64,000 nt of DNA from Candidatus Nealsonbacteria bacterium DGGOD1a (GTDB lineage Bacteria; Patescibacteriota; Minisyncoccia; Minisyncoccales; UBA5738), in the NCBI GenBank assembly GCA_022530585.1, contig CP092821.1:649525-713524 (forward strand), written 5' to 3'. A program made the translations under genes and the position numbers. The notes beneath the pieces are model-generated. The model saw nothing but the letters and a program-made list of their open reading frames with translations. It was not told where the DNA came from and made no database searches. Positions 1 to 58,721 of this stretch are shown here, one piece after another. Each line of letters starts with the position of its first letter. The first letter of the stretch is position 1.

Positions 1-86
1 GTATTCTCCGAAAGGCCTTTTTCAATCTCGCAATAATCAAGAAAATCGGGGATATGGCTTATTATGGTTTTGTTAGATTCGTTCAT
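1..86 (-). CDS. Tyrosine recombinase XerC/XerD-like, N-terminal 28 codons only (gene runs off the left edge)
   Basis: Reverse translation from ATG at 86-84 gives MNESNKTIISHIPDFLDYCEIEKGLSEN, a typical Xer/integrase N-terminus (FL.Y...EKGLS.NT). Absent from the ORF track because it is truncated. Confidence 0.45.
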   Translation of the reverse strand, partial: MNESNKTIISHIPDFLDYCEIEKGLSEN

Positions 87-21290: not shown

Positions 21291-21410
21291 AAATAAATTG
21301 GGTTCTTGCGTCGGGGTATTAACCCCGCCATCAGCCAAAGGATGTTTCCTTTGGACTCCTCATTCTTTTTGTTCCCCGCGGCGAGCTGGCGGGGTATAAA
21401 AAGAATAAAA
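21291..21410. repeat. Family A modular GC-hairpin repeat, copy 1 (left and right modules)
   Basis: AAATTGGGTTCTTGCGTCGGGGTATTAACCCCGCC ... ATTCTTTTTGTTCCCCGC-GGCGAGCTG-GCGGGGTATAAAAAGAAT. Recurs at 22680, 32165 and 43601. Confidence 0.8.
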
Positions 21411-21411
21411 A

Positions 21412-21494
21412 TAACAATTGAAAAATATAAAATTAAAATTTCTTATGGAATTTTTTCTTAATTTTACATTTTGATTTTTAAATTTTAATTTTCT
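21412..21494. repeat. Family C AT-rich palindromic element, degenerate copy
   Basis: The right arm TTACATTTTGATTTTTAAATTTTAATTTT matches the arms at 26930, 47080, 47670 and 58680. Confidence 0.55.
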
Positions 21495-22082
21495 TTAATC
21501 TCCCAATTTTAAACTTTCCAAAATCGTGTACGCCGGGCCGCCTTTCTTTAATTGGCTTTCCATGACCTCGATGGATTCAACCATAAATGTCCGGCTGATT
21601 TTTTCGTTTATTTCCGGTATCTCTTCCGGTTCCATTTGCGCCAATCCGGCGAGCTGCAACCGCGCCAGAGTGATATGCGGCGCGAAACTGTAAATTTCGC
21701 TCTCGCGATACTCGCCGCCGCAAAATTCATAAAGCGAAGTTTCCAAATCTTTTTGCAACGCGCCCAATTCCGGCGAACTGTTCCCAACCGCCCATATCAT
21801 TTTAGGCGGTTTTTTGGACAAATTCCCCACCGGGCCATACGCCACTTTATCAATGGTCAGATCAAACGGTTCATGGCGCATGGCGATTTCCGCCGCGTTT
21901 TTGCATATCTCGCAAACTTCTTCATCGTTGGCGTTGCCTAAAAAATTCAAAGTTATATGCAAACTTTCCATTTTGGTCCAGCGCGCCGGCAATTCGGGCC
22001 AGCGATCCTGAAACAAACCCAATTCATTGCGCAATTTATCCGGCAAATTGATTGCGATAAATATCCGATGCAAATTATTCAT
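21495..22082 (-). CDS. thpR: RNA 2',3'-cyclic phosphodiesterase / 2'-5' RNA ligase family (ThpR/LigT)
   Basis: Two HxT motifs (LHITLNFLG and PHITLARL). Length 195 aa. Confidence 0.85.
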   Translation of the reverse strand: MNNLHRIFIAINLPDKLRNELGLFQDRWPELPARWTKMESLHITLNFLGNANDEEVCEICKNAAEIAMRHEPFDLTIDKVAYGPVGNLSKKPPKMIWAVGNSSPELGALQKDLETSLYEFCGGEYRESEIYSFAPHITLARLQLAGLAQMEPEEIPEINEKISRTFMVESIEVMESQLKKGGPAYTILESLKLGD

Positions 22083-23098: not shown

Positions 23099-23689
23099 AT
23101 GGAAATAATCTCGCTGACGCCGAATAATTTTCAAATCGCGGTGGAAACCGCGAATCGACTGATCCAAAAAGGAGGAGTCGTTGTCGTGCCCACCGATACG
23201 GTCTACGGTCTGCTGGCGAACGCCGCGAACGAAAACGCGGTAAAAAAAATTTACGCGATCAAAGACCGCCCTCAAGGAAAACCATTACCGGTTTTTGTGA
23301 AAAATATGGCAATGGCAAAAAAATTAGCAAAAATATCGGCAAAACAGCAAGAGTTTTTGGAAACCAAATGGCCGGGGAAATTCACCGCGATATTGTTTCG
23401 AAAACCGGACGCGAAGATTTTTGGCGCCGACGACAAGACTATCGCGCTGCGCATACCATTTTACGCATTCGCAAATTCTTTGCTGGAAACCGCCAACCAA
23501 CCGTTGGCGGCCACATCGGCGAATCTTTCCGGACTGCCCGCGGCCACGAAAATCGATGAAGTTCTAAACCAGCTTGCCCGCGCGGCCATTATGCCTGATT
23601 TGGTCATCAATGCCGGCGATCTTGATGATTCAAAACCGTCGATCATCGCCGACTTGACTCAACGCGCAATCAAAACAGTGCGCGAATGA
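23099..23689 (+). CDS. tsaC: L-threonylcarbamoyladenylate synthase (YrdC/TsaC family)
   Basis: VVVPTDTVYGLLANA and ATSANLSG motifs. Length 196 aa. Confidence 0.9.
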   Translation: MEIISLTPNNFQIAVETANRLIQKGGVVVVPTDTVYGLLANAANENAVKKIYAIKDRPQGKPLPVFVKNMAMAKKLAKISAKQQEFLETKWPGKFTAILFRKPDAKIFGADDKTIALRIPFYAFANSLLETANQPLAATSANLSGLPAATKIDEVLNQLARAAIMPDLVINAGDLDDSKPSIIADLTQRAIKTVRE

Positions 23690-24399
23690 AACATATGGAG
23701 AAAAGACCTGCAATCAAAAAAAATCAAGAATTGAAAATACTCCGGGAAATCATTGAAACAATCAGTTACAATCTTGATCTGAAGGAAGTTTTGAACCGCA
23801 TCGTAAAAATCGTGAGCGGCGTGACTAAAGCCGATTCTTGTTTTTTGTACCTGATCGATGGCGGCGATCTGGTTTTGCGCGCGTCCCTCAACCCCAAACC
23901 GCTGGAAATCGGCAGCATCAAACTGAAACTCAACGAAGGCATAACCGGCTGGGTGGCGCGCAACAAACTCACCGTCGCGATCGCAAAAGAAGCTTACAAT
24001 GACCAACGATTTAAATTCGTCAACAGCCTGCCCGAAGACAGATTCGAGGGATTCCTGTCGGTACCGATAATTTACCGCGACAAAGTTTTGGGCGTGATCA
24101 ATGTCCAGCATTCCAAACCGCGCGCCTATTCAAAAACCGAGACGGTCTTATTCGAATTGGTGGCCAAAGCCGTTGGGGGCGCGATTGAAAATGCCCTGCT
24201 CTTTTCGGAAAAAGAAGCGTTAAAGGAAGCGCTGGAAACCCGCAAAGTGATCGAAAAGGCCAAAGGAATCCTGATGAAAGAGTTTTCCATCACCGAAAAC
24301 GACGCCTATAAATTACTGCATAAAAAATCAATGGATAAACGCCTGTCAATGAAAGAAATCTCAAACGCGATTATTATTTCCGCTGAATTTAAAAAATAA
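23686..24399 (+). CDS. GAF-ANTAR RNA-binding antiterminator-type regulator
   Basis: N-terminal GAF-like fold (ADSCFLYL...EGITGWVA...LSVPII..VLGVINV) and C-terminal ANTAR signature LETRKVIEKAKGILMKEFSITENDAYKLLHKKSMDKRLSMKEIS. ATGA overlap with tsaC. Confidence 0.85.
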   Translation: MKHMEKRPAIKKNQELKILREIIETISYNLDLKEVLNRIVKIVSGVTKADSCFLYLIDGGDLVLRASLNPKPLEIGSIKLKLNEGITGWVARNKLTVAIAKEAYNDQRFKFVNSLPEDRFEGFLSVPIIYRDKVLGVINVQHSKPRAYSKTETVLFELVAKAVGGAIENALLFSEKEALKEALETRKVIEKAKGILMKEFSITENDAYKLLHKKSMDKRLSMKEISNAIIISAEFKK

Positions 24400-26739: not shown

Positions 26740-26768
26740 TTGACTTATTTGATTAAATGCGGTAAATT
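26740..26768 (+). promoter_or_regulatory. Candidate sigma70-type promoter of glnA
   Basis: TTGACT (26740-26745), 17-nt spacer, TAAATT (26763-26768). Confidence 0.55.
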
Positions 26769-26777
26769 ATTAACATT

Positions 26778-26839
26778 AAGCACAACGAAGTGCTTTCAAA
26801 CAAGACAATGGCGTCTCCGAACCGAATTCGGGGATTTTT
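26778..26839 (+). promoter_or_regulatory. Candidate ANTAR-responsive leader: P1 and P2 hexaloop hairpins plus an overlapping intrinsic terminator
   Basis: P1 at 26778-26795: AAGCAC[AACGAA]GTGCTT. P2 at 26803-26816: AGAC[AATGGC]GTCT. Terminator at 26814-26834: TCTCCGAA[CCGAA]TTCGGGGA followed by TTTTT. Confidence 0.55.
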
Positions 26840-26844
26840 GTTAA

Positions 26845-26960
26845 ATTAAAATATAAAAATCAAAGATCAAAATGACAATGCAAAATTTAAAAATTTATAA
26901 ATTATAAAATTTTGAATTTTTAATTGTATTTTTTCATTTTGATTTTTAAATTTTTAATTT
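26845..26960. repeat. Family C AT-rich palindromic element, copy immediately upstream of the glnA ATG
   Basis: AAAAATCAAAGATCAAAATGACAATGCAAAA ... TTTTTCATTTTGATTTTTAAATTTTTAATTT. Confidence 0.7.
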
Positions 26961-26965
26961 GGAAT

Positions 26966-46988: not shown

Positions 46989-47000
46989 AGTATTTTTGTT

Positions 47001-47115
47001 AATTGAAAATGTAAAGATCAAAATGGAAAATGACAATTAAAAATTAAAAATGTTGAATTCTTGAATTTTTAAACTTTGCACTGTCATTTTGATTTTTGAT
47101 TTTTCAATTTTAAAT
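47001..47115. repeat. Family C AT-rich palindromic element (between grpE stop and dnaK start)
   Basis: Differs from 47600-47709 only by a 7-nt indel and two substitutions. Arms AAAATGACAAT / ACTGTCATTTT. Confidence 0.85.
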
Positions 47116-47592
47116 TTATTTTACCACTTTAACCTTTGCCGGCCGCAATAATCGGCCGTTGACCATATATCCTTTTTCAACTTCTTCGATGATGATTCCC
47201 GATTCTTTACCCTCGGCTTCCACGGCTTGGATAACTTCGTGCAAAGCCGGATCAAAATTCTTGCCCAGAGAATCAATGGCTTGGGCGCCGTTGGCTTTCA
47301 AAAAATCTTCCAACTGGGTTTTAACCATCATTAAACCCTTCACATTGGCATCTTCCAATAATTCCGGCGGCATTTTGCCGACGATCAAATTCATATTATC
47401 CAGAATCGGCAAAATCGTTTCCAAAAAGCTTTCTTTGGCGTAGCGCATCAATTCTTGCGCCCGCTCGGATTCATCTTTTTTGTAATTGATAAAATCCGCG
47501 GCGGCGCGCTTCCAACCGCTTAAATTAACCTCGCATTGTTTTTTACATTCATCGAGCTCGGTTAATTTATTTTCTTGTTCTTGGTCTGCCAT
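47116..47592 (-). CDS. grpE: Nucleotide exchange factor GrpE
   Basis: The coiled-coil N-terminus and C-terminal beta domain (FDPALHEVIQAV...GYMVNGRLLRPAKVKV) are typical GrpE. Start at ATG 47592. Confidence 0.92.
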   Translation of the reverse strand: MADQEQENKLTELDECKKQCEVNLSGWKRAAADFINYKKDESERAQELMRYAKESFLETILPILDNMNLIVGKMPPELLEDANVKGLMMVKTQLEDFLKANGAQAIDSLGKNFDPALHEVIQAVEAEGKESGIIIEEVEKGYMVNGRLLRPAKVKVVK

Positions 47593-47599
47593 CTTTTTT

Positions 47600-47709
47600 A
47601 ATTGAAAATGCAAAGATCAAAATGGAAAATGACAATTAAAAATGCTGAATTCTTGAATTTTTAAACTTTGCACTGTCATTTTGATTTTTGATTTTTCAAT
47701 TTTAAATTT
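47600..47709. repeat. Family C AT-rich palindromic element (between hrcA stop and grpE start)
   Basis: See 47001-47115. The right end contains the hrcA stop codon. Confidence 0.85.
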
Positions 47710-48418
47710 CGTTAAACAGTTTCAACACTTCATTGGTCAGCGCGATATTTTTCTCATAGGCCATTCTTTTGGGCCCCACAATCGACAGGATAACTTCTTC
47801 CTGTTCGACCGGCTGGAGCGAAAAGGTTATGGCGCTGAAATCTCCGGCTTTGGAAAAATGGTTTTCGCCGCCGATGTGAATATCCAACTTGGCTTCCGAG
47901 CCTCGGGATTTGACATCGTCCTCCAAATAACCCAAATAATTGATGAAATTCTCAATGGCGGCCTTGTCCTCGAATTCCGGATTCTGCAGCAAATCTTCCC
48001 AGCCCTCTTTCCAAATAACATCTTCCTGCCGCAAATAACCCAGCACCAGCGACGACGATGCCTGCGCCAAACTGCGCGTGAGCGAATTGGCCAGCTTGAA
48101 AACATCTTCAAATTCATCCTCAATGCTTTTTCCGGGTTCAAAATCCAATTCCCGAACTTCCATTTGGTTTTCGCTTTTCAATAAATCGTTCACGAAAAGC
48201 CGGTAGCCCTTATCGGTGGGCACCCGCCCGGCCGAAGTGTGCGGCTGTTCCAAAAACCCGTCATCGGTCAACTTTTGCATTTCAATGCGAATCGACGCCG
48301 GACAAATCCCGAAATCATACTTTTCCCCCAGATACATCGAAGACACCGGCCGCGCCGATTCCACATATTCCCTGATAATCGTGTCCAATATATTTTTCTG
48401 CCGCTCGGATATCTGCAT
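47702..48418 (-). CDS. hrcA: Heat-inducible transcription repressor HrcA (short, 238 aa)
   Basis: N-terminal winged helix ERQKNILDTIIREYVESARPVSSMYL...IRIEMQKLTDDGFLEQPHTSAGRVPTDKGYRLFV. First gene of hrcA-grpE-dnaK-dnaJ. Confidence 0.88.
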   Translation of the reverse strand: MQISERQKNILDTIIREYVESARPVSSMYLGEKYDFGICPASIRIEMQKLTDDGFLEQPHTSAGRVPTDKGYRLFVNDLLKSENQMEVRELDFEPGKSIEDEFEDVFKLANSLTRSLAQASSSLVLGYLRQEDVIWKEGWEDLLQNPEFEDKAAIENFINYLGYLEDDVKSRGSEAKLDIHIGGENHFSKAGDFSAITFSLQPVEQEEVILSIVGPKRMAYEKNIALTNEVLKLFNEI

Positions 48419-58587: not shown

Positions 58588-58706
58588 TCAGTTAAAAATG
58601 TAAAAACAAAGATCAAAATGACAGTTAAAAATGTAAAATGTCGGAATTTAGACATTTTTAAACTTTACATTGTCATTTTTCATTTTGATTTTTAAATTTT
58701 AAATTA
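58588..58706. repeat. Family C AT-rich palindromic element
   Basis: AAAAATGTAAAAACAAAGATCAAAATGACAGTTAAAAATG ... CATTGTCATTTTTCATTTTGATTTTTAAATTTTAAATT. Abuts the ATG at 58585. Confidence 0.8.
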
Positions 58707-58721
58707 TTGCCGCCGCGTAAA

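Follow-up and report, generated by a model that had tools for sequence, protein, structure and literature searches.

A conserved leader between a GAF-ANTAR gene and glnA in Candidatus Nealsonbacteria, a predicted ANTAR-class transcription attenuator

Is the leader of glnA, the glutamine synthetase gene of the ultra-small patescibacterium Candidatus Nealsonbacteria bacterium DGGOD1a, the RNA target of the GAF-ANTAR protein encoded upstream of it? We addressed this question in a stretch of 64,000 nucleotides (nt) from contig CP092821.1 (GenBank assembly GCA_022530585.1, positions 649,525 to 713,524 of the forward strand; hereafter the window, whose own numbering is used below). An initial annotation had read the leader as the site of an ANTAR antiterminator. 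This reading is supported by conservation of the leader in 33 loci, by covariation in its first hairpin (P1), and by overlap of its second hairpin (P2) with a terminator in 32 of the 33, and we conclude that the glnA leader is probably a GAF-ANTAR-dependent transcription attenuator of the ANTAR class.

The leader comprises a promoter, hairpin P1, a short linker, hairpin P2, and an intrinsic terminator (Table 1), elements that the initial annotation had listed and that can all be read directly in the sequence, as can the A at position 1 (A1) and the G at position 4 (G4) of both hexaloops. The promoter scores 9 of 12 in a consensus scan, so that its sequence stands and its former description as near-consensus is slightly generous; transcription would start at about 26775-26777, just 5′ of P1. 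The terminator core at 26814-26834 consists of TCTCCGAA, the loop CCGAA, and TTCGGGGA, followed by T5 at 26835-26839. The 8-bp hairpin with five U residues reported earlier is therefore present, and in both a terminator scan and RNAfold its stem extends to 9 bp (26813-26835, 4 of 9 pairs G-C) through a G26813-U26835 wobble. The P2 3′ arm lies inside the terminator 5′ arm, with 3-4 nt in common (26813/26814-26816) instead of the 3 first counted, and P2 and the terminator are mutually exclusive. P2 has 4 bp, 3 of them a conserved core, and both hairpin stems have the 3 bp or more that the definition of ANTAR targets asks for (PMC3369931). The linkers of natural Enterococcus faecalis eut leaders measure 5-12 nt, and constructs with 3 or 14 nt are defective (PMC3369931).

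Table 1. Features of the glnA locus, in window coordinates.
Feature	Position	Strand	Description
GAF-ANTAR one-component regulator, 237 aa	23686..24399	+	Pfam GAF_2 + ANTAR
GAF domain, residues 30-168	23773-24189	+	GAF_2, 65.2 bits, E 9e-18
ANTAR domain, residues 177-230	24214-24375	+	Pfam PF03861, 71.8 bits vs cut-off 27.3, E 4e-20
Beta-propeller protein gene, 730 aa	24450..26642	-	Pfam Beta_propel PF09826, E 1e-109; signal-peptide-like N-terminus
Sigma-70-type promoter TTGACT-17-TAAATT	26740..26768	+	TTGACT 26740-26745, 17-nt spacer, TAAATT 26763-26768
P1 hairpin	26778..26795	+	6-bp stem AAGCAC/GUGCUU, hexaloop AACGAA (A1, G4)
P1-P2 linker UCAAACA, 7 nt	26796..26802	+	read from sequence
P2 antiterminator hairpin (predicted)	26803..26816	+	stem AGAC/GUCU, hexaloop AAUGGC (A1, G4)
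Intrinsic terminator	26813..26842	+	9-bp stem GUCUCCGAA/UUCGGGGAU, loop CCGAA, U-tract (U26835-U26839, G, UU)
AT-rich palindromic repeat, 117 nt	26843..26959		between terminator and glnA ATG; arms 26843-26900, 26902-26959
glnA, type I glutamine synthetase, 477 aa	26966..28399	+	Pfam Gln-synt_N, Gln-synt_C; NCBIfam TIGR00653

RNAfold folds 26770-26845 most stably into P1 plus the terminator, at −20.6 kcal/mol (z = −3.4), and none of 200 shuffled sequences folds as well. For the leader, the minimum-energy fold, again P1 plus the terminator, has −17.7 kcal/mol, compared with −14.7 kcal/mol when P2 is enforced, and enforcing P2 leaves a 5-bp residual stem that is detached from the U-tract. Taken alone, the P2 hairpin has −2.3 kcal/mol and the terminator −10.3 kcal/mol. 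The fold comparison that the initial annotation had called for, including the constrained alternative, thus favours P1 plus the terminator, with a P2 state that shortens and detaches the terminator stem. Because enforcing P2 costs 3.0 kcal/mol, termination is predicted to be the default state, with a factor needed to hold P2, and the modelled energetics are consistent with a protein requirement for P2. Termination by default and a factor that holds P2 are the ANTAR logic of EutV, NasR, and AmiR (PMC3369931, PMC3369936).

We scanned both strands of the window for a composite site comprising two A1/G4 hexaloop hairpins, a linker of 3-14 nt, and an overlapping terminator. The scan returned exactly one site, the glnA leader, and none of 60 first-order Markov simulations contained one. 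When the terminator was not required, 8 dual hexaloops were observed and 7.6 expected, which is the chance level; the hairpin pair by itself is therefore no evidence, and only the composite and its conservation count. A covariance model built from 14 leaders, the window sequence among them, was run against the window with filters off and gave 81.8 bits at the leader, a value set by construction as the leader was a training member, and 12.7 bits (E 0.24) at the next-best position. The covariance-model search proposed earlier accordingly has its sole window match at the leader, with a score that is not independent, and its informative part is that nothing else in the window matches. In each related locus the model gives a single match, always at the leader.

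Rfam at gathering score finds only tRNAs in the window and, at E up to 10, finds in the leader neither the glutamine riboswitch (glnA RNA) nor any other family except for a weak local match to narK RNA (RF03032) over P1-P2 (26751-26817; 14.9 bits vs gathering 43.2, E 1.7). Glutamine riboswitches occur upstream of nitrogen genes in other phyla, and the leader could in principle be a metabolite riboswitch, or the site of some other RNA-binding protein, with the GAF-ANTAR gene nearby by coincidence. We consider this most improbable: apart from the weak narK match no Rfam family is found, the conserved part of the leader spans only ~40 nt, with conservation limited to the hexaloops of P1 and P2 and the pairs that close them, the hallmark of ANTAR targets, and the leader is co-located with the GAF-ANTAR gene in 33 loci.

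The regulator contains a sensor domain and an ANTAR domain joined by a helical linker, and Pfam detects no receiver (REC) domain in CDS 23686-24399, which bears out its earlier description as a GAF-like sensor plus ANTAR. The ANTAR domain is full length (profile positions 1-54 of 54) and aligns without gaps to EutV (6wsh, E 1e-11), Rv1626, and NasR (E 5e-8). We took the list of RNA-contact residues from the EutV-RNA structure (PMC8934654), and 8 of the 11 are identical here. Specifically, EutV R142, K143, K147, K149, E160, Y164, M172, and R175 correspond to R186, K187, K191, K193, E204, Y208, M216, and R219, while N173 is changed conservatively to D217, and R168 and R177 are replaced by the different residues H212 and S221. 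The G4-contacting residues (EutV R142, K149, E160, Y164, and M172) are among those that are the same, and alanine substitution of EutV E160, Y164, and M172 causes a 55- to 60-fold or total loss of affinity (PMC8934654). E204, M216, and R219 are invariant in a 12-sequence alignment of the family, and L172, L179, and L183, leucines at heptad positions, line up with EutV L128, L135, and L139.

In the window, regulator and glnA are 2.3 kb apart (2.4 kb in the initial annotation), with the beta-propeller gene between them. By tblastn, that gene intervenes only in the window and in the relatives L003 and L006; in at least 12 other relatives glnA directly follows the GAF-ANTAR gene, and the distance from the GAF-ANTAR stop to the glnA start is ~140-330 nt in most relatives. 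Judging from this gene order, the beta-propeller gene is not part of the switch and splits an otherwise adjacent pair. The adjacency in most relatives makes the link between regulator and target much tighter than the separation in the window suggests, and the assignment of the regulator to glnA, made earlier from the window alone, is strengthened. The glnA product itself scores 621.6 bits against TIGR00653 (cut-off 429). When the window was searched by tblastn with an ammonium transporter, E. coli PII, and the ANTAR domain as queries, neither additional nitrogen genes nor another ANTAR gene came up, which says little about the rest of the genome.

Scanning one genome per species with the GAF-ANTAR protein gave 30 loci, mostly from Patescibacteria (Paceibacterota, Minisyncoccales, and Staskawiczbacteria), with one Elusimicrobia metagenome-assembled genome (MAG), several Omnitrophota MAGs, and one Planctomycetia MAG; a metagenome scan gave 80 further loci. 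The exact protein is also present in NCBI assembly GCA_029216075.1 and in JGI metagenomes. The leader is present in 35 loci: in 33 it lies directly 3′ of the GAF-ANTAR gene, and in 2 (L037 and L044) it lies upstream of the regulator gene. The 33 downstream leaders precede a glutamine synthetase gene in 28 cases, an ammonium transporter gene (amt) in 2 (L038 and L039), and a small Cys-rich open reading frame (ORF) in 3 (Staskawiczbacteria). The order GAF-ANTAR gene, leader, glnA is found in 15 genome and 13 metagenome loci. The named genome records among the 33 loci are Patescibacteria and one Elusimicrobia MAG, the metagenome loci carrying no taxon label. Metagenome homologues of 47-56% identity are likewise followed by the leader and a glutamine synthetase gene, and some metagenome glutamine synthetases are only ~35% identical to the window glnA product, which suggests a different subtype. 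The initial annotation had named non-conservation of the hexaloops in relatives with the same gene pair as an outcome that would count against it; the 33 loci retain the leader beside the GAF-ANTAR gene.

Covariation in P1 was assessed on 33 ungapped 20-nt blocks, chosen by eye and anchored on the invariant loop. These fixed blocks took the place of a MAFFT alignment (A3) that was dropped for splitting the P1 3′ arms of sequences with short linkers; in a MAFFT alignment of whole leaders (A1), the terminator 3′ arms were out of register, and terminator pairs were hence not counted on it. Across the 33 P1 sequences, 92.9% of cells are standard pairs, compared with 64% after shuffling and at most 45.5% with the partner slid; 5 of the 6 pairs are changed on both sides (62 cells); and the covariation score is 0.82, compared with 0.25 shuffled and at most 0.23 slid. 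The presence of 14 G-U cells indicates that the conserved feature is a sense-strand RNA structure, not a DNA palindrome. RNAalifold, applied to a MAFFT alignment of 14 full leaders, predicts P1 and a 3-bp P2 core unprompted.

The remaining elements are conserved in different ways. In particular, the P2 GAC/GUC core is kept in 32 of 33 leaders, and, being invariant, it shows no covariation; invariant complementarity and analogy with known ANTAR targets argue that P2 would form. Both P1 and P2 have G4 in all 33 leaders, each hairpin retains its closing C-G pair in 32 of the 33, and loop position 1 is always a purine, being A in 30 of 33 leaders for P1 and in 26 of 33 for P2. In 32 of the 33, a hairpin plus U-tract starts within the loop or the 3′ arm of P2; these terminator stems are very varied in sequence yet stay paired, a purely descriptive observation. 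In 22 of 33 leaders, the P1 block is preceded at a distance of 4-12 nt by the end of a TTGACx-16..18-TAnnnT promoter, a position that would put P1 at the extreme 5′ end of the transcript. Linkers in the relatives measure 2-11 nt, and those that hold an additional hairpin measure 18-29 nt.

Several observations weigh against assignment of the leader to a GAF-ANTAR attenuator. Loop position 1 is G in 3 of 33 leaders for P1 and 7 of 33 for P2, though A1 is essential in EutV and NasR, and P2 is without any covariation. With P1 blocks picked by eye and a covariance model trained on the family, some selection bias is possible. The close relatives L005, L008, L025, L031, L032, and L034 have neither the leader nor glnA beside the regulator within the available sequence. 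The ligand suggested below for the GAF domain draws on domain similarity of ~30-35% identity only. Finally, the repeat that separates the terminator from the glnA ATG might supply a promoter or alter the fate of the mRNA. The reach of the leader is also bounded within the family: ~10 further loci with adequate flanks have no leader, and the more distant GAF-ANTAR homologues (~48% identity or less, L058 excepted) have no match to the leader model.

The repeat in question, which the initial annotation had entered as a caveat, is real and measures 117 nt, not 115, with 58-nt arms that are 78% complementary. Related copies lie at 46992-47122, 47606-47716, 58592-58715, and ~21395-21500, and the repeat thus belongs to a family of AT-rich intergenic elements of ~110-120 nt, resembling repetitive extragenic palindromes (REP) or miniature inverted-repeat transposable elements (MITE), with at least 4-5 copies in 64 kb. 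The leader of L003, the closest relative, lacks it. Other AT-rich palindromes occur in the equivalent intergenic regions of L007, L012, L013, L016, and L017. A role for the palindrome as a second regulatory element was considered and rejected, as it is a dispersed repeat and missing from the L003 leader; by its distribution, it is a passenger insertion in the window and not part of the conserved switch, and the caveat is resolved by its membership in a repeat family.

The repeat also enters an alternative in which the promoter, P1, and the terminator make a constitutive short transcript (a small RNA or permanent attenuator), glnA is transcribed from a separate downstream promoter, for example in the repeat, and the GAF-ANTAR protein has other targets. 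The glnA transcription start has been placed by sequence alone, AT-rich DNA such as 26843-26959 often has promoter-like sequences, and regulator and glnA are not adjacent in the window genome, all of which would fit this alternative. Nevertheless, a promoter scan found no + strand promoter-like site at 26769-26965, palindrome included; the leader lies directly ahead of glutamine synthetase or ammonium transporter genes, beside the GAF-ANTAR gene, in 30 loci, most of them without an intervening repeat; and the conserved overlap of P2 with the terminator would be purposeless in a constitutive terminator. We therefore regard a constitutive short transcript as very unlikely.

As a GAF-ANTAR-dependent attenuator, the leader would operate as follows. 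Transcription would begin at the 26740-26768 promoter, immediately 5′ of P1, and the nascent RNA would by default fold into P1 and the terminator (26813-26835 plus the U-tract), stopping transcription before glnA. An RNA-binding-competent GAF-ANTAR protein, presumably a dimer, would place one ANTAR domain on the P1 hexaloop and the other on the P2 hexaloop, stabilising the weak P2 and sequestering the first 3-4 nt of the terminator 5′ arm. The leftover 5-bp stem would be detached from the U-tract, and RNA polymerase would read into glnA. The GAF domain would set the activity of the protein, most likely in response to cellular nitrogen status via glutamine and/or 2-oxoglutarate, and glutamine would be expected to turn antitermination off, so that glutamine synthetase came under feedback from its own product. 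Such a mechanism is ordinary for the ANTAR class and already known; here it comes with an uncharacterised GAF domain as sensor, in a lineage that is poorly understood.

Nitrogen status is the most likely signal because the GAF domain most resembles the N-terminal GAF domain of PtsP (EI-Ntr; PDB 3ci6, 8e-21, and 3trc; NCBIfam PRK11061, 6.6e-23) and next the GAF domain of NifA (5.7e-9). The match to PRK11061 scores 80.8 bits against an equivalog cut-off of 583, only the GAF region matching. The motifs ADSCFLY, EGITGW, and GVINVQH of the GAF domain are invariant. We know of no ligand-bound structure of a PtsP GAF domain. Glutamine binds to the EI-Ntr GAF domain and inhibits autophosphorylation (PMC4848567). 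This domain, the closest solved and named relative, reports nitrogen status, like the sensor proposed here; the likeness is at the level of domain sequence, and the output of PtsP is a phosphotransferase, whereas here it is an RNA-binding domain. With glnA and amt as the regulated genes, the ligand hypothesis on the firmest ground is glutamine and/or 2-oxoglutarate, and we tentatively suggest that the GAF domain may sense one or both. The ligand gating proposed by the initial annotation remains a matter of interpretation, to which the PtsP-like GAF domain adds a specific candidate.

A real ANTAR attenuator could instead have its GAF domain controlled by a partner protein, such as glutamine synthetase or a PII-like protein, or by another ligand, for example a cyclic nucleotide. 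GAF domains bind very diverse ligands and also make protein contacts (PMC3369931; 10.1101/660928), AmiR, another ANTAR protein, is controlled by its partner protein AmiC (PMC3369936), and the similarity to PtsP is confined to the domain. The two best named GAF matches are nevertheless both nitrogen-status sensors, the regulated genes are those of glutamine synthesis and ammonium transport, and tblastn with E. coli PII found no PII homologue in the 64-kb window, a result that says little about the whole genome. We consider control by a partner protein or another ligand possible, if rather unlikely.

The leader and its regulator resemble several known systems. ANTAR-target RNAs were defined as a class, together with their mechanism, in 2012 (PMC3369931). 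The eutP, eutG, eutS, and eutA leaders of E. faecalis, targets of EutV, have the same pair of A1/G4 hexaloops, a similarly short linker, and a P2 3′ arm common to the terminator (PMC3369931, PMC8934654); unlike the protein described here, EutV is a receiver-domain response regulator phosphorylated by EutW and directed at ethanolamine utilisation, whereas here a GAF domain is present, no kinase is implied, the target is glnA, and 3 of 11 contact residues differ. NasR with the nasF leader of Klebsiella oxytoca (PMC3369936, PMC7496416) is likewise a one-component, ligand-gated ANTAR antiterminator of nitrogen assimilation acting on a P1-P2-terminator leader, with a nitrate/nitrite-binding NIT sensor in place of GAF and with nitrate assimilation targets. 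GnfR of Geobacter sulfurreducens (PMC2995071), which has been studied experimentally, is an ANTAR antiterminator at leader terminators of the nitrogen genes nifH, glnK, and amtB, and differs in being a receiver-domain response regulator with a kinase, GnfK, in a nitrogen-fixation cascade.

The nearest precedent for the target gene is in Table S2 of PMC3369931 (2012), which lists predicted dual-hexaloop leaders with terminators before glutamine synthetase genes, beside ANTAR genes, in Firmicutes. The leaders of Desulforudis (Daud_2028), Carboxydothermus hydrogenoformans, and Alkaliphilus (Amet_3385/3386) show the same logic and gene order as the leader described here and, like it, are computational only. 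They differ in lineage, the present family belonging to Patescibacteria and other uncultivated phyla, and in the regulator, which is an ANTAR response regulator in Desulforudis and Carboxydothermus and an 'ANTAR regulatory protein' in Alkaliphilus, whereas here it has a GAF sensor. The narK RNA family, of which the leader is no member by its score, has a consensus in which a pair of hexaloop hairpins, CCAACGGCGG and GACAAAGACGUC, takes the form C-(A)NNGNN-G, and may itself be an ANTAR (NasR/NasT-type) binding site.

These observations do not alter how ANTAR mechanisms are understood; for Firmicutes, ANTAR control of glnA was already a prediction of 2012. GAF-ANTAR is a recognised and common one-component architecture, the commonest ANTAR architecture in mycobacteria (10.1101/660928), and the characterised one-component ANTAR proteins as of 2020/2025 are only NasR (NIT) and PAL (PAS-LOV) (PMC7496416, PMC12591593); in the searchable literature, we found neither a ligand nor an RNA target established for any GAF-ANTAR protein, and nothing specific on ANTAR in Patescibacteria. 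The family is an unusually clean case, with one small protein, a leader of ~65 nt, a clear output (glutamine synthetase or ammonium transporter), and a specific candidate ligand, and it belongs to a small set of concrete regulatory circuits that are legible in the genomes of Patescibacteria (candidate phyla radiation, CPR). Tests could be made wholly in vitro or with a heterologous host, an advantage given that the organisms are mostly uncultivated. A bolder proposal, which we put forward as speculative and on balance doubtful, is that the GAF-ANTAR gene, the leader, and a nitrogen-assimilation gene form a self-contained two-gene feedback module that is the main and perhaps only nitrogen circuit of minimal Patescibacteria, its GAF domain sensing glutamine and/or 2-oxoglutarate directly, that replaces PII, NtrBC, and GlnR-TnrA, and that has been recombined with different glutamine synthetase types and amt across several uncultivated phyla. 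If this were true, no earlier GAF-ANTAR protein would have had both its ligand and its RNA target defined.

Some relatives depart from the layout in the window. The inserted hairpin in P1-P2 linkers of 18-29 nt is seen in L012 (6683-6772) and L013 (6828-6923), where it bears a third A1/G4 hexaloop, AAAGCA, and also in L004, L017, L024, L047, and L051; it could mark an ANTAR site with three hairpins or act as a spacer holding P1 and P2 close. In the Staskawiczbacteria loci L019 (6725-7081), L021 (6755-7107), and L023 (6727-7089), a promoter, dual hexaloop, and terminator precede a Cys-rich ORF of 75-82 aa that has no Pfam family and no convincing homologue in the window. In L037 (237-304) and L044 (3408-3857), the position of the leader upstream of the GAF-ANTAR gene may reflect autoregulation or a different operon layout; in L044, the leader is followed by a 122-aa ORF without a Pfam family and then by the regulator. 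The Omnitrophota and Planctomycetia loci L027, L029, and L030, which are complete, and L028, in which the second copy is cut at the contig end, contain a tandem pair of GAF-ANTAR paralogues; glnA is missing from the flanks, and the leader model matches nowhere in these loci.

Three further observations concern the annotation of the genes. The beta-propeller protein has a possible peptidoglycan-binding motif. JGI labels many members of the GAF-ANTAR family (P0005, P0010, P0023, and others) 'uroporphyrinogen-III synthase', against their Pfam GAF and ANTAR content, which looks like a propagated mis-annotation, and also annotates family members 'GAF and PtsI domains'; public annotations of the family are either generic or wrong. 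Gene callers start glnA at TTG 26924 (491 aa), with an N-terminus, MYFFILIFKFLIWN, inside the AT-rich repeat; the glnA homologues in all loci align from ATG 26966, and the public annotation probably begins the gene 14 codons too early.

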